A DNA stretch of 64,000 bases from Escherichia phage vB_EcoM_G2133. The stretch lies in sequence record MK327928.1; one strand, written 5' to 3'. The translations under genes and the position numbers were made by a program. Every line of letters starts with the position of its first letter. Position 1 is the first letter of the stretch. The notes under the pieces are model-generated. The model ran no database searches. It worked only from the letters and a program-made list of their open reading frames with translations, and was not told where the DNA came from. This document shows, piece by piece, positions 9,146 through 38,655 of this stretch.

Positions 9146-9616
9146 TTAATCATGTTTCCACACCCCATCGGTATTTGACCAAAGCCGCTGATTATCTGAT
9201 CCTCGCCACAGCTTTTTAGTCGGAAGATTTTTCTCATACTTCCCATCAATAATAACATCAACATATTTAAGCATTTCTAGTTGTTTAATATCTTCAAACT
9301 TATATCCTGTCCACAACCAAATGCTTTTATTGGGATAAAGATTTTTTACTGTTTGAACAATACAATGAATAACATCTCGATTGTCAGGATAGAGAGGGTC
9401 TCCTCCAGTTATAGTCAATCCTTCTATATAATCATTATTCAAACATTCAATTAATTGTTCTAGTGTTTCACCAGTGAATGGAATACCATTTCTAGCATTC
9501 CATGTTGATTTATTATAACACCCTTCACATTTATGCAAACAACCTGTAACGAAAAGAACGACCCTGCAACCAGGGCCATTCACAAAATCGCAAGGATAAA
9601 ATCTATCATAATTCAT
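9146..9616 (-). CDS. nrdG: Anaerobic ribonucleotide reductase activating protein NrdG (radical SAM)
   Basis: 156 aa; CxxxCxxC cluster motif (GCLHKCEGC); stop overlaps the nrdD start region. Confidence 0.9.
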   Translation of the reverse strand: MNYDRFYPCDFVNGPGCRVVLFVTGCLHKCEGCYNKSTWNARNGIPFTGETLEQLIECLNNDYIEGLTITGGDPLYPDNRDVIHCIVQTVKNLYPNKSIWLWTGYKFEDIKQLEMLKYVDVIIDGKYEKNLPTKKLWRGSDNQRLWSNTDGVWKHD

Positions 9617-11430
9617 TGGTGTTTAACCCTATGCATGATTTCTTTATTTTTGCCGAGATTAAATCCGCGTTCGTTCGGATTTCCCAAATAACCACATGTT
9701 CTTCTTATGGTATTCATCTTTTTAGGATCAGTTTCTCCACAAATAGAACAAACAAATCCGTTTTCAGTAGGAGTCATTTCATGGGTACTTCCACATGTAA
9801 AACATTTATCTACCGGCATGTTAACACCAAAATAATCTAAATGTTGTGCAGCATAATCCCATACAGCCTCAAGACCTTTTAGATTATTTTTCATATCAGG
9901 AAGTTCAACATAAGAAATGTGACCACCTGTCGCAATGAAATGATATGGCGCTTCACGAGAAATCTTTTCAAACGGAGTAATATTTTCTTCTACTGAAACA
10001 TGGAAACTGTTAGTGTACCAGCCTTTATCAGTAACATCTTTTACACTTCCATATTTTTCTGTATCGAGTTTACAGAAGCGATAACAAAGGTTTTCAGCAG
10101 GAGTAGAATATAAACTAAAAGCAAATCCGGTTCTTTCAGTCCACTGTTTAAGATGGGCATTCATTTTAGTTAAAATTTCCTGTCCAATATCACGACCGAC
10201 AAGAATATTCAATTCGTGAATACCAATGTATCCTAGGGACACTGAACTTCTACCGTTTTTAAATAACTCAATTATGTCGTCATCAGGTTTAAGACGAACC
10301 CCGAATGCACCTTCTTGGTAAAGAATAGGAGCAACAGTAGCTTTAACTCCTTTTAAGGAACTAATTCTACACATCAAAGCTTCAAAACATAAATCCATTC
10401 GTTCATTGAATAATTCAACAAATTTCTGTTCATTGAACTGTGTTCCAATATAAGAATCTAACGCTATGCGAGGAAGATTCAATGTTACAACACCAAGATT
10501 ATTACGTCCATCAAGAATTTCATTACCAGTCGAATCTTTCCATACGCTCAAGAAACTACGGCAACCCATTGGAGAAACAGGAACAGATGAACCAGTGATA
10601 GCTTTATTGTTCTTAGCTGAAATAATATCAGGATACATTCTTTTGCTTGCGCACTCTAAAGCAAGCTGTTTAATATCATAGTTCGGATCGTCTTTATAAA
10701 GATTAACACCTTCTTCAACGAACATAACAAGCTTAGGAAAAATAGGAGTTATCCCATCACGACCGAGACCTTTAATACGATTTTTCAGAATTGCTTTCTG
10801 AATCATTCGTTCAGTCCAGTCAGTTCCCGTACCAAATGTAATTGTTACAAAAGGTGTTTGTCCGTTTGAACTAAAGAGAGTATTTACTTCATATTCATAA
10901 GCTTGGAATGCATCGTATACGTCTTTTTCTGTTTTAGATTGAGCATAATTCAGTGCATCGGCGATTTGCCATTTTTCTGCATCCTCAATATGTTTTGCAT
11001 AGGTACGTTTAACATAAGGAGAAAGTACTTTATCTACATTCGCAAAAGTCGTTCCGCCGTACTGGTGTGAAGCAACCTGTGCAGTAATTTGTGCCATAAT
11101 TGCAGTAGCAACACCGATTAATTTAGGAGTTTCAATCTGCGCATTACCAAGCTTAAATCCGTTCTCAAGCATTCCTTTTAAATCTACTAAACAACAATTA
11201 GTAAATGGAAGAGCAGGGGAATAATCAATATCATGGAAATGGATAATTCCGCTTTCATGCGCTTTCATAATAAAAGACGGGACCATATTTTTGGCAATGT
11301 GTTTAGACACAATACCAGCCATAAGGTCCCGTTGAGTTGGAAAAACACGAGAATCTTTATTAGCATTCTCGTTTAAAAGGTCTTTATTAGTTTTATGAAT
11401 CAATCCTTCAATTTCTTTTTCAATTGTCAT
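9613..11430 (-). CDS. nrdD: Anaerobic ribonucleoside-triphosphate reductase NrdD, uninterrupted
   Basis: 605 aa continuous ORF; C-terminal glycyl-radical and Zn-ribbon region (CFTCGSTHE...CSICGETD...RRTCGYLGNP). Confidence 0.92.
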   Translation of the reverse strand: MTIEKEIEGLIHKTNKDLLNENANKDSRVFPTQRDLMAGIVSKHIAKNMVPSFIMKAHESGIIHFHDIDYSPALPFTNCCLVDLKGMLENGFKLGNAQIETPKLIGVATAIMAQITAQVASHQYGGTTFANVDKVLSPYVKRTYAKHIEDAEKWQIADALNYAQSKTEKDVYDAFQAYEYEVNTLFSSNGQTPFVTITFGTGTDWTERMIQKAILKNRIKGLGRDGITPIFPKLVMFVEEGVNLYKDDPNYDIKQLALECASKRMYPDIISAKNNKAITGSSVPVSPMGCRSFLSVWKDSTGNEILDGRNNLGVVTLNLPRIALDSYIGTQFNEQKFVELFNERMDLCFEALMCRISSLKGVKATVAPILYQEGAFGVRLKPDDDIIELFKNGRSSVSLGYIGIHELNILVGRDIGQEILTKMNAHLKQWTERTGFAFSLYSTPAENLCYRFCKLDTEKYGSVKDVTDKGWYTNSFHVSVEENITPFEKISREAPYHFIATGGHISYVELPDMKNNLKGLEAVWDYAAQHLDYFGVNMPVDKCFTCGSTHEMTPTENGFVCSICGETDPKKMNTIRRTCGYLGNPNERGFNLGKNKEIMHRVKHQ

Positions 11431-26824: not shown

Positions 26825-27027
26825 GTAACCTTTAAGCAATATTCTTCTACGTGCTGTTTACGACCTTTCTTATCAATAAAGGTATATTCAACGAATGTTC
26901 CAATGTAGTCTTTATCTACATCATGTGGACTATTAATTGGACATTTAGTACGGCAAATGCGTTCCCATTGACGGATAATTACTGCCTTATTCTTTGGGTC
27001 ATACGGATGTGGATAATGTATATTCAT
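26815..27027 (-). CDS. Hypothetical small protein
   Basis: Start at the ATG at 27027, overlapping the macro-domain gene stop (ATGA). Confidence 0.4.
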   Translation of the reverse strand: MNIHYPHPYDPKNKAVIIRQWERICRTKCPINSPHDVDKDYIGTFVEYTFIDKKGRKQHVEEYCLKVTWL

Positions 27028-27491
27028 AATAATGGTTCCCAATCAACAATCACAATTTCTAATTTAGAAGAATATGTATCTAAAATCCCCTCAATAATAT
27101 CCCAGTTCCCTTTACCTATGCCTGCACCAATCCTAGGCATATAGATTGTAGGTTTAATCAGTTTATTTTCACCAAACTCATTTAATTCTAACATACAATT
27201 CATTAAAGCGGAATACTCAAAATTTGGCCCTGGTTGAAATTGAGTATAAAGGTTGAAGCAATACGCTTTATGAGTCCTAAAGTATTTTTCATAGACTGAG
27301 TAAGAACCGAGTTTAGTTACATCACCCCATTCAGTCTGTAATTTATCAGCTTCCAAAATTTTAGGGAAAGCTTTGGTTAATTGACCTGCGACTCCAGCTT
27401 TCATCGTGTGAAAACAATTACATCCATGCGCAATATTTTTACCTTCAGCGAAAAGGGCGACAATATCGCCCTTAATATATTTTACAATCAT
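27024..27491 (-). CDS. Macro-domain (ADP-ribose binding/processing) protein
   Basis: 155 aa; N-terminal GDIVALFAEGKNIAHGCNCFHTMKAGVAGQ and glycine-rich IGAGIGKGNWD resemble macro-domain signature regions. Confidence 0.55.
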   Translation of the reverse strand: MIVKYIKGDIVALFAEGKNIAHGCNCFHTMKAGVAGQLTKAFPKILEADKLQTEWGDVTKLGSYSVYEKYFRTHKAYCFNLYTQFQPGPNFEYSALMNCMLELNEFGENKLIKPTIYMPRIGAGIGKGNWDIIEGILDTYSSKLEIVIVDWEPLL

Positions 27492-28380: not shown

Positions 28381-28842
28381 TCATTGAGTTTTAATTACTG
28401 CTTTAGAAGCCTTTCCTGGTAAACGACGACTGTTGATAATTGCCATCCTACATTGAAGTGACGGGTCTTTGAACTTCGCGTTAGGTTTACAAACTGTAAA
28501 TCCAAGCCAAAGATTTCCATCTGTGATTTCTAAACGTCCAGGACGATATTCAACCCCATCAATAAAATCCTCGTCAATGTCAGGACGCGGAGGCATACTC
28601 AGGAATTCATTAACTTCTAAAACATGGTCTTTTATTTTATGGAATAATTCAAAAACGTATGTCTCATCAATCTCCCGTTGAATTGCGCGATCAAGAAGAT
28701 GCTGAGAATATTTTAGATGAAACGATGAGACTCCTGCTGCTTTTGATGCCTCACGAATCTCATTGTTAATTTGACGAAACTCCGACTCAAAGTGACGACG
28801 AAGCTTATTTCGACGGATAAAAACTTCTGTATTGATAGTCAT
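28381..28842 (-). CDS. regB: RegB site-specific endoribonuclease
   Basis: 153 aa; sequence MTINTEVFIRRNKLRRHFESEF... recognised as T4 RegB. Confidence 0.75.
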   Translation of the reverse strand: MTINTEVFIRRNKLRRHFESEFRQINNEIREASKAAGVSSFHLKYSQHLLDRAIQREIDETYVFELFHKIKDHVLEVNEFLSMPPRPDIDEDFIDGVEYRPGRLEITDGNLWLGFTVCKPNAKFKDPSLQCRMAIINSRRLPGKASKAVIKTQ

Positions 28843-28869
28843 GTTATTCTCCTCTTAACTGATAGAAAA

Positions 28870-28899
28870 ATTATACCACAGTCAAGAGGAAAAGTAAAC
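28870..28899 (-). promoter_or_regulatory. T4-type early promoter upstream of regB
   Basis: GTTTAC, 18 nt, TATAAT on the minus strand. Confidence 0.5.
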
Positions 28900-28901
28900 A
28901 G

Positions 28902-29180
28902 TTATTCTTTAAATCTGATCAATTTATTCATAGACTTTGAAACTTCTGCACGAACCTCATGTAAGTTTTTAAGCTGTTCAAGACGCTGTTCATAGTAAGC
29001 AATTTCATCTTCTTCGAGACAGTCCTGTGAATCTTCTTTAAGATAGCGTGCATAGTCCTGGAAAGCTTTACGGACTACTTCCTGGAAGTCATCAAGACTT
29101 TGAATTTTCTTAGGAGCAACAGATACACGACGAGGGGCAGTATAATACTCATAACCAAACCCTGCGCTTAATTGAGCCAT
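28902..29180 (-). CDS. Hypothetical small protein (vs.3 position)
   Basis: 92 aa from the ATG at 29180, which overlaps the upstream stop (TAATG). Confidence 0.4.
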
Positions 29181-29446
29181 TAGTATTTTTCCTCTGGTTG
29201 GAACACTGCGCGACAAGCCCACATACTGGCTTCTTTGAGTTTCGTTTTAGCAATAGTTAACTGATCGAGGCTTTCGGCATAATTCTTCGCGAATTCACAG
29301 TCTTCACAATTATCTAGTGCTTCCCAAAATTCATCGTATAAAGCGTCAAAGATAAGTCCTAAACGAACTTCAGCATCTTTGATAGCATTCACTTTACCGA
29401 TTTTCTCTTCAGTATGTGGCTTATAACCTTTAATATCTTCAATCAT
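29180..29446 (-). CDS. Hypothetical small protein (vs.4 position)
   Basis: 88 aa from the ATG at 29446 with GAGGAAG Shine-Dalgarno. Confidence 0.4.
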
Positions 29447-29660
29447 ATTTGACTTCCTCACCAGTACATAAATCATATTCAACTAAACGAATAGGTTCAT
29501 GAATGCCATATCCTTGAACAGAAATTTCTGTCGTAGGATAAATTCCATCAATATCACCCATGGTCCACGCTTCATTAAATTGCTGTTCGCCTGAATTACT
29601 AAACCACTCGGCGAAAGCATTTAGCACATCTTTAGAACCTTCAATAATTATCTTTGCCAT
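29439..29660 (-). CDS. Hypothetical small acidic protein (vs.5 position)
   Basis: 73 aa; ATG overlaps the stop of the GrcA-like gene (TAATG). Confidence 0.4.
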   Translation of the reverse strand: MAKIIIEGSKDVLNAFAEWFSNSGEQQFNEAWTMGDIDGIYPTTEISVQGYGIHEPIRLVEYDLCTGEEVKYD

Positions 29661-30022
29661 TACAAACTCTCAGTAAAGGTACGAGCGATAACGTCGCGCT
29701 GCTGTTCCGGAGTCAGAGAGTTAAAGCGAACTGCATAACCGGATACACGGATGGTCAGCTGCGGATATTTTTCCGGATGCTTAACTGCATCTTCCAGAGT
29801 TTCACGACGCAGAACGTTAACGTTCAGGTGTTGACCACCTTCAATTTTAACTGTAGGCTGTTGCTCAATTTCAATTTCACGGGCATGCAAACCGTAGAAA
29901 ATTTCTGGGTCTACAAAAGAGTCCTCTTTAAAGGTTTTAGAGACAATAATTCGTGCTTGAATACCATCTTCAAAATAAATAGTACCTTTATGTGTGCCTT
30001 CAAGAATTTGATATGCTTTCAT
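29660..30022 (-). CDS. Autonomous glycyl-radical cofactor (GrcA/YfiD-like)
   Basis: 120 aa; C-terminal ~60 residues ([59 protein letters not shown]) carry the RVSGYAV glycyl-radical signature and look essentially identical to E. coli GrcA. Confidence 0.8.
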
Positions 30023-30029
30023 ATAAACC

Positions 30030-30359
30030 TCAATTAGAAAATAAATTTATCCAAGATTGTTCTTTAATTAAAAACGGCTCAGAATCATATGCCATTAAAC
30101 TCTGTGTGATTAGTCCTTTAAAAGGTCCATCAATAAATTCCATGGTAAAATATGGAATTTTATTCATTAGCCGTGCATTAGGAGCAGTACATAAAACTCT
30201 GCATCCTTTGAATACGCCTTTTTGTAATTTGTATTGCTTGGGATAAAATTCGCTCAAAATATTATTATTCGCTAAAATTTCAAAATGATTCACCAATTTA
30301 TTTTTAATAGTTTTTGGCGAAAAATAAAGATATTCGAAAAGCTGAGTGTCTGTCATCAT
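30030..30359 (-). CDS. Hypothetical protein (vs.7 position)
   Basis: Start at the ATGATG at 30359, overlapping the upstream stop. Confidence 0.4.
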
Positions 30360-30943
30360 TGCATTCCGATTACGAAAAACTGTGGACGAGTAATACCACC
30401 AATACAACAGTTAATATTACAGCAGCAGTGTACAGTGTCAATATGGACACTATAAATCTTATCCATATCAGGAGATTTGACAGGCTCATCAATTATATAC
30501 AAAATTCGCGAAAGCGATAAACCTCTGAACTTGCTTCCTTTATTACCTATAAAACTGCGCACAGAATCAGTAAATAAACGAAAACGTATATCATCATTAG
30601 AATAACGCGAAAATTCCTTTTTAATGTTATTTGCAGAAATTTTAGCGTAAGCTGAAGTATTAGAAAGAACAATAACTGTTCCGCCATCATACAGCCAATT
30701 AGCAGCAAAGTTAGTCACAGCAATTGATTTACCGGATTGACGTCCACCATCTAGTCGAAGTGTGCAATACTGTTTAAGTAAATCTTCAAATGGCGGAATA
30801 TATTCGTTTTTACAAATTTCTTCTACTCTAGCATCAGAATGGTGTGTAAAAGCATTCATCAGGGATAGATAAGGTCCAGTTAAAAATGTTCTCATTTTAT
30901 TCTCTCTAAATTTGGGCCATTCCATGGCGCATGAATTGTCCAT
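30356..30943 (-). CDS. Hypothetical P-loop protein with Cys-rich C-terminus (vs.8 position)
   Basis: Start at the ATG at 30943 (GGAGGGGG Shine-Dalgarno); Walker-A-like GGRQSGKS and LYIIDEP. Confidence 0.45.
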   Translation of the reverse strand: MDNSCAMEWPKFRENKMRTFLTGPYLSLMNAFTHHSDARVEEICKNEYIPPFEDLLKQYCTLRLDGGRQSGKSIAVTNFAANWLYDGGTVIVLSNTSAYAKISANNIKKEFSRYSNDDIRFRLFTDSVRSFIGNKGSKFRGLSLSRILYIIDEPVKSPDMDKIYSVHIDTVHCCCNINCCIGGITRPQFFVIGMQ

Positions 30944-30976
30944 TTCTGTATTTACCCCCTCCAAGTAATTATGATT

Positions 30977-31006
30977 ATACTATCACAATTCTAGGAGAAA
31001 GTAAAC
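30977..31006 (-). promoter_or_regulatory. Possible early promoter
   Basis: GTTTAC present; the -10 element is ambiguous (TAGTAT at 18 nt or TATAAT at 21 nt). Confidence 0.35.
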
Positions 31007-31008
31007 TG

Positions 31009-31311
31009 TTATTTACCTTTAATTACTTTAGCTGCTTCGATAGCCGCTTGCTGAAGGTCATCCATAGACATACCGAATTTAGAAGCAAAGTTATCAATTT
31101 TCTTTTCGACAGCATTCAAAGGCTTGGCCTGTTTACCTTCATTAGCGCCAGGAAGAGCGAGAATACGCTCTTTGTCAATATAAAGGCTTACAAGTTTCTT
31201 ACGGTCTTTATCGGACAAATCATGAAATGAATGGGCCTTTTTATTTATAGCGGCTTCTAATTTACCTGCACTCACTCGCGCTTCAGTAATAAATTCTTGA
31301 TATGTTTTCAT
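31009..31311 (-). CDS. ipII: Internal protein II (capsid-targeted, injected)
   Basis: 100 aa; N-terminal capsid-targeting sequence MKTYQEFITEA. Confidence 0.75.
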   Translation of the reverse strand: MKTYQEFITEARVSAGKLEAAINKKAHSFHDLSDKDRKKLVSLYIDKERILALPGANEGKQAKPLNAVEKKIDNFASKFGMSMDDLQQAAIEAAKVIKGK

Positions 31312-31352
31312 ATGTTTCCTTTAAATGTAAATAGGTCTGAGTATTAGCTTTA

Positions 31353-31931
31353 TTAGGAATTACGGGCTGCATTAGCAACGGCGTAAGCGTACTGAACATT
31401 AGCGTCTTTAAACGTACCTTTAGAGGTATCTAGTTCTGCCTTAAAGCCGCCTTTAGTCATAACATCGGCAAATTCTTTACGGAAAGCCATTGCATCAAGA
31501 CTTCTCCATAATGATTTGTGCTTGGCGAATTCAAGACCAGCGTAGTTGACAGCCTTAGCTAATTTGTTATCAATAACCCATTTACCAGCTTTAGGCACAA
31601 ACACCGGGCCTTTCTGTTTAGAGAACAGTTTTAAATTCCAGCGACGAAGGTCACCGTCGGCTTTAACAAAAGCTGCGTCTAAGTTACTAGCAACAACATC
31701 CTGAATATGGCCAAATTTAAGCCCATCAACTTCAATATTTAGATCGGTACGCCAGCGAAGTCCTTCCCAAGCGAAAGCTTTAAAGTCGGAAGCCTTTGTA
31801 GCTAAGTACCGTTCAATAGGAGCTGTTTTAGGGTCAAAGCCGTTTCCCGATCGGTAGGTCCACTCATCTTTATTAATGCCTTTGGCCTTTACTACAGAAG
31901 CTTCGGCAATAAATTCTTGATATGTTTTCAT
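31353..31931 (-). CDS. ipIII: Internal protein III
   Basis: 192 aa; N-terminal MKTYQEFIAEA, and the body matches T4 IPIII as I recall it. Confidence 0.8.
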   Translation of the reverse strand: MKTYQEFIAEASVVKAKGINKDEWTYRSGNGFDPKTAPIERYLATKASDFKAFAWEGLRWRTDLNIEVDGLKFGHIQDVVASNLDAAFVKADGDLRRWNLKLFSKQKGPVFVPKAGKWVIDNKLAKAVNYAGLEFAKHKSLWRSLDAMAFRKEFADVMTKGGFKAELDTSKGTFKDANVQYAYAVANAARNS

Positions 31932-37059: not shown

Positions 37060-37370
37060 CTTGCGGCAACCTTGTCGGGGTTCCACCTGCTAAGGCAAGT
37101 GTTTGTACGAAACGCCGGGATTCGAACCCGGTTATTAAGCAGTTGACGCTACTCAATATTTTAAAAGGCCATATCTCGACCATATCCGAACGTTCCGTCA
37201 AAAACGCTACTCGGCTTATGGCAAAGATATTTCCTCGAATCGATAATTCGGTGCGCCGTTTCTGCTGTGATATAAGGGGGGCATTAACAAAACATAAAGA
37301 TTTATTAATGCCAGTCCTTAAACAGGGAACATCAGTCCGACGACTTACCGGTAGCGACCCGGTTTCTTGT
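37060..37370 (-). ncRNA. Probable stable small RNA region (positional equivalent of the T4 species 1/2 stable RNAs), includes a tRNA-like T-arm
   Basis: No convincing ORF; GC-rich structured sequence with GGTTCGAATCC at about 37112-37132; lies between tRNA-Arg and the terminator. Confidence 0.3.
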
Positions 37371-37371
37371 C

Positions 37372-37447
37372 TGGTCGAGGCAGTAGGGATCGAACCTACG
37401 ACCCAGGACTTAGAAGGTCCTTGCTCTTCCTTCTGAGCTATGCCCCG
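37372..37447 (-). tRNA. tRNA-Arg (anticodon UCU), CCA encoded
   Basis: Manual fold: acceptor CGGGGCA/TGCCTCG, anticodon loop CTTCTAA, T-arm GGTTCGATCC, 3' ACCA. Confidence 0.85.
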
Positions 37448-37450
37448 TAA

Positions 37451-38116
37451 TTAAAATTTCATTTTTCGACCTTTAAACCATCCTTCTGGAATTGGGTCAG
37501 TTTTCTTAATACGTTTAGAAACTTTTTCATCTAATGAATGAATCCACATCATGCCAAATTGGGAATTCTTTTCACCTTGTTGGTGTTTATTTCTGGCGTG
37601 AGATTCTTTCATTTTATTAATAGTTTCAGGAGTATGGGTCTTACCCAAGAAAGATTTAGTATTTAAAAATTTCTCTCTATACTTAGGATTATCCCAAAGC
37701 TGTTTAAACCTTTCTGAACCCATTTTACGATATTTTTCTTTAAGGTCTGGGTCGTTCTCAAATCTGGTTTTAAAAGCGGCAGCTCCTTTTAAGGAAGCTT
37801 CTTTCTTTTTATCCAAATATTCTTTAGTGTTTAAATGGTCCCAACCACCTTCACCACCTAATTTCAAATTATAAACATCAGGGCGCTTTAAAAACTCTTC
37901 AGTCACAATATTCTTTTCTGACTCAAACATAGAGGTTTTATCGTCAAAGAACTCTAATATTTCTTTAGAAAAATTTTCTATACCATACTTATCTTGGGCT
38001 CTTTTTAATAATTTACCAGAACCCATATATCCATCATCTAAATTTTCGGTAGAATGAGCGCCTATATAGATTTTATTATTAATTTTATTTGTTATTTTAT
38101 AAATGTAATGGAACAT
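37451..38116 (-). CDS. segB: GIY-YIG homing endonuclease SegB
   Basis: 221 aa; N-terminal YIYKITNKINNKIYIGAHS GIY-YIG module; sits inside the tRNA cluster as in T4. Confidence 0.75.
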   Translation of the reverse strand: MFHYIYKITNKINNKIYIGAHSTENLDDGYMGSGKLLKRAQDKYGIENFSKEILEFFDDKTSMFESEKNIVTEEFLKRPDVYNLKLGGEGGWDHLNTKEYLDKKKEASLKGAAAFKTRFENDPDLKEKYRKMGSERFKQLWDNPKYREKFLNTKSFLGKTHTPETINKMKESHARNKHQQGEKNSQFGMMWIHSLDEKVSKRIKKTDPIPEGWFKGRKMKF

Positions 38117-38157
38117 AAATATCTCCTATTTCTAAGAGTATTTATGTTCTCAAAATA

Positions 38158-38229
38158 TGGCCCTGGGTGGAATTGAACCACCATCTGGCGATTATGAGTC
38201 GCTTGCTTGAACCTTCCAGCTACAGGGCC
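38158..38229 (-). tRNA. tRNA with anticodon CAU (Ile-type if modified, otherwise Met)
   Basis: Manual fold: acceptor GGCCCTG/CAGGGCC, anticodon loop CTCATAA, T-arm GGTTCAATTCC; CCA not encoded. Confidence 0.75.
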
Positions 38230-38235
38230 TTGATA

Positions 38236-38308
38236 TGCTGATTGACGGAATCGAACCGCCGACGTCCTCATTACAAGTGAGGTGCTCTACCTACTGAGCT
38301 AAATCAGC
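38236..38308 (-). tRNA. tRNA-Thr (UGU)
   Basis: Acceptor GCTGATT/AATCAGC, anticodon loop CTTGTAA, T-arm GGTTCGATTCC. Confidence 0.85.
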
Positions 38309-38315
38309 GAAATTA

Positions 38316-38402
38316 CGGAGGCGATAGGATTTGAACCTATGAGTCGCCGGAGCGACTGCCGGTTTTCAAGACCGGTGCATTAAACCACTCTGCCACGCCT
38401 CC
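38316..38402 (-). tRNA. tRNA-Ser (UGA), long variable arm
   Basis: Acceptor GGAGGCG/CGCCTCC, anticodon loop CTTGAAA, T-arm GGTTCAAATCC. Confidence 0.85.
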
Positions 38403-38404
38403 AG

Positions 38405-38478
38405 TCTCCATACAAGGATTTGAACCTTGGACCTCCTGATCCCAAATCAGGCGCTCTACCAAACTGAGCTACACGGAG
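38405..38478 (-). tRNA. tRNA-Pro (UGG)
   Basis: Anticodon loop TTTGGGA, T-arm GGTTCAAATCC; directly abuts tRNA-Ser as a dimeric precursor. Confidence 0.85.
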
Positions 38479-38490
38479 TAAATTAAATTT

Positions 38491-38562
<72 letters not shown>

Positions 38563-38568
38563 AAACTT

Positions 38569-38655
38569 TGGTACGAGAAGTGGGACTCGAACCCACAAGG
38601 AAATCATTCCGCAGCATTTTAAGTGCTGTGCCTTTACCAATTTGACTATTCTCGC
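38569..38655 (-). tRNA. tRNA-Leu (UAA), long variable arm, CCA encoded
   Basis: Acceptor GCGAGAA/TTCTCGT, anticodon loop CTTAAAA, T-arm GGTTCGAGTCC, 3' ACCA. Confidence 0.85.

Follow-up and report, generated by a model that had tools for sequence, protein, structure and literature searches.

A T4-type phage gene for a GrcA-like glycyl-radical cofactor with a 3′ half that appears to derive from Escherichia coli grcA

What use would a phage have for a small protein that carries the radical domain of a host enzyme, and how did part of the gene for it come to be nearly the same DNA as a gene of its host? Both questions are raised by an open reading frame of Escherichia phage vB_EcoM_G2133 (MK327928.1), a Tequatrovirus. 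The window, that is, the whole stretch of DNA that was analyzed, comprises 64,000 nt. A previous sequence-only reading of it had proposed that the open reading frame 29660-30022 encodes a GrcA/YfiD-like autonomous glycyl-radical cofactor. The open reading frame exists at these positions; it encodes 120 aa and lies on the minus strand, which that reading had left unspecified. The features of the gene, all of them on the minus strand, are the following:

30028-30031, minus strand: GAGG, Shine-Dalgarno sequence of vs.6; the ATG is located 6 nt downstream, and the TGA stop of vs.7, which lies upstream, overlaps this sequence
29660-30022, minus strand: coding sequence of vs.6 (Y06I), 363 nt, 120 aa, 13.9 kDa; GrcA/YfiD homologue
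30020-30022, minus strand: ATG start codon of vs.6
29845-30022, minus strand: phage-type 5′ half, codons 1-59; GC 33.9%, GC3 21.7%, about 47% nucleotide identity to grcA
29660-29844, minus strand: apparently host-derived 3′ half, codons 60-120 plus stop, encoding the glycyl-radical domain; 182 of 185 nt identical to E. coli grcA
29729-29749, minus strand: RVSGYAV glycyl-radical loop, vs.6 residues 92-98
29738-29740, minus strand: codon of the radical glycine Gly95, counterpart of GrcA Gly102 and PflB Gly734
29663-29671, minus strand: last three sense codons of vs.6, GAG AGT TTG, where E. coli has GAA AGC CTG
29660-29662, minus strand: TAA stop codon of vs.6

The gene is organized as that of a stand-alone small protein, with a Shine-Dalgarno sequence and an ATG of its own, placed between the stop of vs.7 and the start of vs.5. 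The TAA stop and the ATG of vs.5, the gene that follows, overlap as TAATG, and vs.8, vs.7, vs.6, vs.5 and vs.4 form a tightly packed string in which all genes are co-directional. Scanning of the region 28800-31500 yielded 11 promoter-like sites (9.7 expected) and 2 terminator-like sites (1.7 expected). A terminator-like hairpin at 29826-29840 on the plus strand, AGGTGTTGACCACCT, was considered implausible as a terminator; it corresponds to the palindrome GGTGGTCAACACCT formed by the codons for EGGQHL. This hairpin falls within the E. coli-derived tract described below, on the strand antisense to vs.6.

Membership of the protein in the GrcA/YfiD family (NCBIfam TIGR04365, InterPro IPR011140) was analyzed with profile models. 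TIGR04365, 'autonomous glycyl radical cofactor GrcA', is the best NCBIfam model for vs.6 (154.9 bits, E = 1.2e-45), with a whole-protein score that remains below the equivalog cut-off of 170 bits. The score stays under the cut-off because of the divergent N-terminal half: when used alone, the C-terminal half scores 131.5 bits, and the N-terminal 60 aa give no match to NCBIfam. The protein also matches the Pfam Gly_radical model PF01228 with 67 bits (cut-off 22.2). At the DNA level, blastn of vs.6 against grcA gives E = 3e-84, with a match in every one of 5426 E. coli genomes, a similarity well outside what chance would produce. Among structures in the PDB, GrcA as solved by NMR (6OWR; E = 9e-42) comes closest, in an alignment that reaches GrcA residue 28, followed by the C-terminus of PflB.

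The C-terminal ~60 aa had been described as essentially identical to E. coli GrcA, and alignment with GrcA and with the PflB C-terminus had been proposed as a check. These alignments bear the description out to the residue: vs.6 61-120 is identical to GrcA 68-127 at 60 of 60 positions (BLASTP E = 2e-52), and vs.6 58-120 aligns to PflB 697-759 with 94 bits. The RVSGYAV motif is where it had been read, with the radical glycine intact. The claim that the N-terminal ~55 aa differ from host GrcA was right as well, both in nucleotide identity and in the profile search just mentioned. Two refinements have to be made: the C-terminal identity reaches the DNA level, and the N-terminal half, while divergent, is shown by profile comparison to be a distant homologue of the N-terminus of GrcA.

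When compared with E. coli GrcA (YfiD; 6OWR), the phage protein is thus the same over the C-terminal 60 aa, which comprise the RVSGYAV loop as well as the C-terminal helix, and according to the literature both proteins are activated by PflA and act on O2-cleaved PflB (PMC8683613). It differs in being 7 aa shorter, in having no counterpart of GrcA's N-terminal segment, in an N-terminal half which is about 33% identical over 46 profile-aligned columns, and in its location in a string of genes of the phage early region instead of in the regulatory context of host grcA. Fold and motif are common to vs.6, the C-terminal domain of PflB (PDB 1H16/2PFL) and TdcE; PflB, however, is an enzyme of 759 aa, whereas vs.6 consists only of a radical domain and a docking tail.

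The gene is already known. vs.6 is a small T4 open reading frame with a Gly_radical domain (Nolan et al., PMC1524935), and records of T4-type phages match the window gene at one place only; hence, the window gene is T4 vs.6, the ~14-kDa Y06I of the biochemical literature. It has been characterized biochemically for T4 and is routinely annotated in public records. In phage AR1, which is annotated with T4 gene names, the entry reads 'vs.6: autonomous glycyl radical cofactor', and the gene order is vs.8-vs.7-vs.6-(vs.5)-vs.4-vs.3-regB-vs.1-vs-tk.4...tk. The DNA of the window gene is 100% identical in phages slur03, slur08, slur14 and fPS-2 and 98.9% identical in T4 and T2. As for the protein, 119 of 120 aa are identical to T4, the sole difference being Q54P in the N-terminal half, from which no functional effect is expected; the exact protein and that of T4 belong to one 90% cluster, under the UniRef name 'Autonomous glycyl radical cofactor ... 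_BPT4'. In T4 the gene likewise lies in the tk-vs-regB-vs.x-e region, flanked by vs.7 and vs.5. Altogether, matches that span 80% or more of vs.6 occur in 925 phage records.

Alignment of the DNA of vs.6 with that of grcA reveals that the gene is a mosaic. A maximum-chi-square scan places a boundary at gene nucleotides 178/179 (window 29844/29845), with an identity to grcA of 47.4% upstream and 98.4% downstream; the breakpoint statistic was reached by 0 of 2000 shuffles. The longest unbroken identical run spans 175 nt (29670-29844). Base composition changes at the same time: the 3′ half has a GC content of 49.4%, the window average being 34.7%, and GC3 is 21.7% upstream of the boundary and 43.3%, exactly the figure for E. 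coli, downstream of it. It is grcA that the 3′ tract matches at the DNA level (98.4%), and not pflB or tdcE.

Could such an identity merely reflect constraint on the sequence? In the same segment, E. coli differs from Citrobacter with a dS of 0.36 and from Salmonella with a dS of 1.0. As this segment diverges freely between hosts, constraint at the nucleotide level cannot account for the identity of phage and E. coli, and the fact that the identity extends to the DNA points to a recent transfer from host to phage, beyond mere conservation of the protein. When the 3′ half was compared with those of 80 sampled host species, 176-181 of 183 nt were identical to E. coli grcA in Tequatrovirus and Mosigvirus, with at most 167 in the other genera. 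To judge from these comparisons, the source of the tract is E. coli. The opposite direction, from phage to host, was rejected: both halves of E. coli grcA have diverged vertically from their Citrobacter and Salmonella counterparts, and this normal divergence, together with the host composition and host GC3 of the tract, indicates a transfer from host to phage.

The only three mismatches to grcA in the 3′ half are synonymous and confined to the final three sense codons (GAGAGTTTG vs GAAAGCCTG), at which all T4-like phages retain the phage-type sequence. We infer that these codons either mark where the transferred tract ends on its 3′ side or are kept as a GAGAG ribosome-binding site for vs.5.

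For the N-terminal half, a profile built from 9 diverse phage N-halves was compared, by means of hhalign, with one built from 66 distinct bacterial GrcA N-halves. The two align over 46 columns with a probability of 92.7% (E = 4.4e-7) and have in common the pattern AR-x-IVSK...ED...RE-V-x-E-x-P-x-V. At this profile-profile level vs.6 has a GrcA-type N-terminal region, in which the first ~18 residues of GrcA have no phage counterpart. Between Tequatrovirus and Mosigvirus, the 5′ half shows a dN of 0.052 and a dS of 0.43-0.48 (dN/dS of about 0.11), and it is under purifying selection; in the 3′ half, dS is just 0.09-0.14.

The best reading of these data is that vs.6 is an ancient phage homologue of grcA whose radical-domain half has been overwritten, or homogenized, by E. 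coli DNA through recombination, and that the overwriting postdates the divergence of the Tequatrovirus and Mosigvirus 5′ halves. The tract variants of Mosigvirus reach a best identity of just 97.3 and 96.8% to the grcA alleles of 5426 E. coli genomes. The history may have consisted either of a single event followed by spread from phage to phage, or of repeated transfers. No paper on a host-derived tract in vs.6 was found in the searchable literature, an absence which is not proof of novelty. If the reading is correct, vs.6 would represent a rare documented case of gene conversion from host to T4 inside a coding sequence. The 175-nt tract is a clear example from nature of how a strictly lytic phage, which degrades the DNA of its host, overwrites part of one of its own genes with host sequence, and the gene as a whole is a natural domain swap that combines a host radical domain with a phage docking half.

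The distribution of the tract was analyzed in 80 IMG/VR loci and 13 GenBank phages, in which a nearly identical E. coli tract is present only in Tequatrovirus and Mosigvirus types. GrcA-like genes of other lineages (Karamvirus, Slopekvirus, Pseudotevenvirus, Jiaodavirus, Krischvirus, T5-like and jumbo phages) match any sampled host at 116-164 of 183 nt. Those of T5, Krischvirus, Slopekvirus, Jiaodavirus, Karamvirus and jumbo phages such as 7t3 resemble vs.6 in size (about 120-138 aa) and in their invariant core, but their 3′ halves are 63-91% identical at the nucleotide level to any sampled host grcA and lack a recent E. coli tract. In every phage lineage examined, the radical glycine, the whole loop and the protein core are invariant. 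Phages of Klebsiella carry the Klebsiella-type LLDAVEH where E. coli has LEDAVKH, with many synonymous differences, and Jiaodavirus and Slopekvirus show 83-90% nucleotide identity to the sampled Klebsiella-group genes (80 loci, K. pneumoniae not among them). The Klebsiella-type residues hint at older host-matching.

Some individual records in this set merit a comment. In Klebsiella phage CPRSB (locus L086, 401-766) the vs.6 homologue has 366 nt, a disrupted frame and several in-frame stops after about codon 40, and a CDS of only 66 aa is annotated; its near relatives Miro and phT4A are intact. The CPRSB copy is either a pseudogene or the product of an indel sequencing error. The GrcA-like gene of T5 is annotated as 'putative acetyltransferase-related protein'. 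A 19-kb IMG/VR contig (L124, 9287-9580) contains a full-length Yersinia-like grcA, and the IMG/VR loci L165-L175 contain pflB 3′ ends; these bacterial-type genes probably come from host DNA flanking prophages, or from bacterial sequence that was mis-binned.

What the protein does can be approached from the biochemistry of its relatives. Y06I and YfiD are ~14-kDa spare-part proteins in which the glycyl radical is put in place by PFL-AE (Wagner et al., 2001, cited through PMC8683613). When activated, YfiD or Y06I forms with O2-cleaved PFL a complex that regains activity (Wagner et al., 2001, BBRC 285:456, likewise through PMC8683613), so that the statement that a T4 homologue repairs oxygen-damaged pyruvate formate-lyase is borne out for Y06I as far as this secondary account goes. 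YfiD and T4 Y06I are the sole two spare-part proteins that have been validated experimentally (PMC8683613). Residues 61-127 of YfiD duplicate residues 693-759 of PFL; residues 1-60 are disordered in solution, but without them cleaved PFL is not bound measurably, and radical installation is about 4-fold higher when they are present (PMC8683613). In vivo, GrcA gives formate production back to a PflB G734A strain, the radical at GrcA G102 being passed to PflB C419 (PMC12338860). A search of the accessible literature for the in vivo phenotype of a vs.6 mutant returned none.

We consider it highly probable that vs.6 is a stand-alone glycyl-radical domain which serves as a spare part for host PflB. 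Activation by PFL-AE and rescue of cleaved PFL are known from the literature, in vitro, for the T4 protein (119/120 aa), and by analogy would apply to vs.6 of the window. The proposed sequence of events is as follows. O2 would cleave active PflB at Gly734, and the 120-aa protein would bind the cleaved enzyme, its N-terminal half presumably aiding the docking. The C-terminal 60 residues, which are those of GrcA, would then stand in for the lost radical domain of PflB. Host PflA (PFL-AE), with SAM, would abstract a hydrogen from Gly95 of vs.6, and the Gly95 radical would be transferred to PflB Cys419, upon which pyruvate could once more yield acetyl-CoA and formate. Under fluctuating or low oxygen, the phage might benefit from fermentative ATP and especially from formate for its NrdD.

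The coexistence of the gene with a phage glycyl-radical enzyme, NrdD, and its activase, NrdG, had also been pointed out. Profile searches corroborate the presence of both genes in the window:

9613-11430, minus strand: nrdD, class III RNR, 605 aa, uninterrupted; NF006732, 905 bits; Gly loop RRTCGYLG
9146-9616, minus strand: nrdG, radical-SAM activase of NrdD, 156 aa; TIGR02491, 198.6 bits

They are encoded on the same strand as vs.6, at about 18 kb from it. The nrdD gene of this phage has no intron, and no group I intron was detected in the window with Rfam; it thus lacks the sunY intron found in T4 nrdD.

In other phages the genes are closer to each other. The Salmonella jumbo phage 7t3 (locus L093, grcA-like gene at 321-683) shows the order nrdD, grcA-like gene, small ORF, nrdG. 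The homologue is likewise placed between nrdD and nrdG, at about 10001-10360, in three jumbo contigs from IMG/VR (L120, L122 and L123). On a 235-kb contig (L137, 9848-10210) the order is nrdB, nrdD, nrdG, grcA-like gene and two glutaredoxin-like ORFs, nrdG being separated from the grcA-like gene by only 2 nt. Thus, a 120-aa GrcA-like gene is found within the nrdD-nrdG operon in two lineages of jumbo phages. In a T5-like phage, grcA-like and nrdD-like genes are located about 25 kb apart. No paper dealing with linkage of grcA-like genes to nrdDG was found in the searchable literature.

This arrangement brings in a first alternative to PflB repair, namely that vs.6 is part of a glycyl-radical system of the phage itself, either activated by NrdG (instead of or besides PflA) or acting as a spare radical domain for cleaved NrdD. 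The presence of nrdD and nrdG in the window and the position of the homologues between the two genes (7t3, L120, L122, L123) or 2 nt after nrdG (L137) would fit with it, as would the weak similarity of NrdG to PflA at the family level (TIGR02493, 51 bits). Nevertheless, the radical domain of vs.6 is that of GrcA, its nearest enzyme sequence is the PflB C-terminus, at the 94 bits given above, and it bears no likeness to the C-terminus of NrdD. The latter reads CFTCGS...CSICGE...RRTCGYLG, a Gly loop of the NrdD type (RxCGY) after a Zn-binding Cys cluster, and vs.6 has IRVSGYAV and lacks that cluster; no NrdD model appears among the NCBIfam matches of vs.6. Furthermore, the T4 protein has been shown to be activated by PFL-AE (PMC8683613), and in T4-like and T5-like phages the gene does not adjoin nrdD or nrdG. 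We therefore regard an exclusive or additional role in the phage's own system as improbable.

Considerably less probable still is that vs.6 works as a decoy which titrates PflA or occupies PflB, redirecting pyruvate flux or blocking GrcA-dependent repair. A host-identical radical domain joined to a different docking half has indeed the look of a competitive mimic and, as the N-terminus of YfiD controls binding to cleaved PFL (PMC8683613), an altered one could alter the outcome. Yet the T4 protein is described as a restorer, not an inhibitor, of PFL activity (PMC8683613), and the strict conservation of the radical glycine and loop across the phage lineages examined would be needless for a pure binder. 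That vs.6 is a neutral passenger without selected function, host grcA DNA taken up recently and by accident, can practically be discarded: the 3′ half is nearly unaltered E. coli DNA with host GC, but the 5′ half has a phage-like composition, is related to GrcA only at the profile level and is under purifying selection, intact homologues occur in Straboviridae genera on several hosts and in T5-like and jumbo phages, and vs.6 is among just eleven T4 ORFs of unknown function that are kept in all five T4-like genomes compared (PMC1524935).

Coming back to repair of PflB as the preferred reading, the question is what the phage would gain from it. In class III RNRs, formate supplies both reducing equivalents (PMC4493059, citing Mulliez 1995), and PFL is the enterobacterial source of formate (PMC12338860). 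As a tentative proposal, which may well turn out to be wrong, vs.6 could serve the PFL side of an 'anaerobic dNTP module' of the phage, keeping host PFL active while oxygen fluctuates and so securing formate, on which NrdD depends as its obligatory reductant, with the radical domain of E. coli T-even phages being kept host-matched by recombination with grcA. A role in formate supply would explain both why grcA-like genes lie inside nrdD-nrdG operons in jumbo phages and why T4-like and T5-like phages possess them along with nrdD. The co-occurrence alone is a weak argument, as nrdD is common in large virulent enterobacterial phages. As a further possibility, NrdG may cross-activate vs.6. Linkage to nrdD and nrdG in the jumbo phages provides a testable physiological rationale for phages to carry a grcA-like gene, i.e., formate for anaerobic dNTP synthesis. 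Together with the host-derived tract, it constitutes a modest addition to what was known about the gene.

Other features of the window were recorded in the course of the analysis. Within 37372-38655 on the minus strand, both tools used detect 7 tRNA genes (Arg-tct, 'Met'-cat, Thr, Ser, Pro, Gly and Leu), of which the 'Met'-cat tRNA is probably an Ile-type CAT tRNA. Neither tool detects a tRNA-Gln in this cluster; T4 is usually described with a tRNA-Gln in its own. Beside the cluster, at 37105-37198 on the minus strand, ARAGORN predicts a 94-nt 'tRNA-Lys(ttt)' that scores below the Rfam tRNA gathering threshold. It may correspond to a tRNA-like stable RNA rather than to a real tRNA; T4 encodes a stable RNA near tRNA-Arg. 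Closer to vs.6, at 27024-27491 on the minus strand, lies an orthologue of tk.4 (155 aa), a further conserved T4 gene whose orthologues match the macro/A1pp domain (Nolan et al., PMC1524935).
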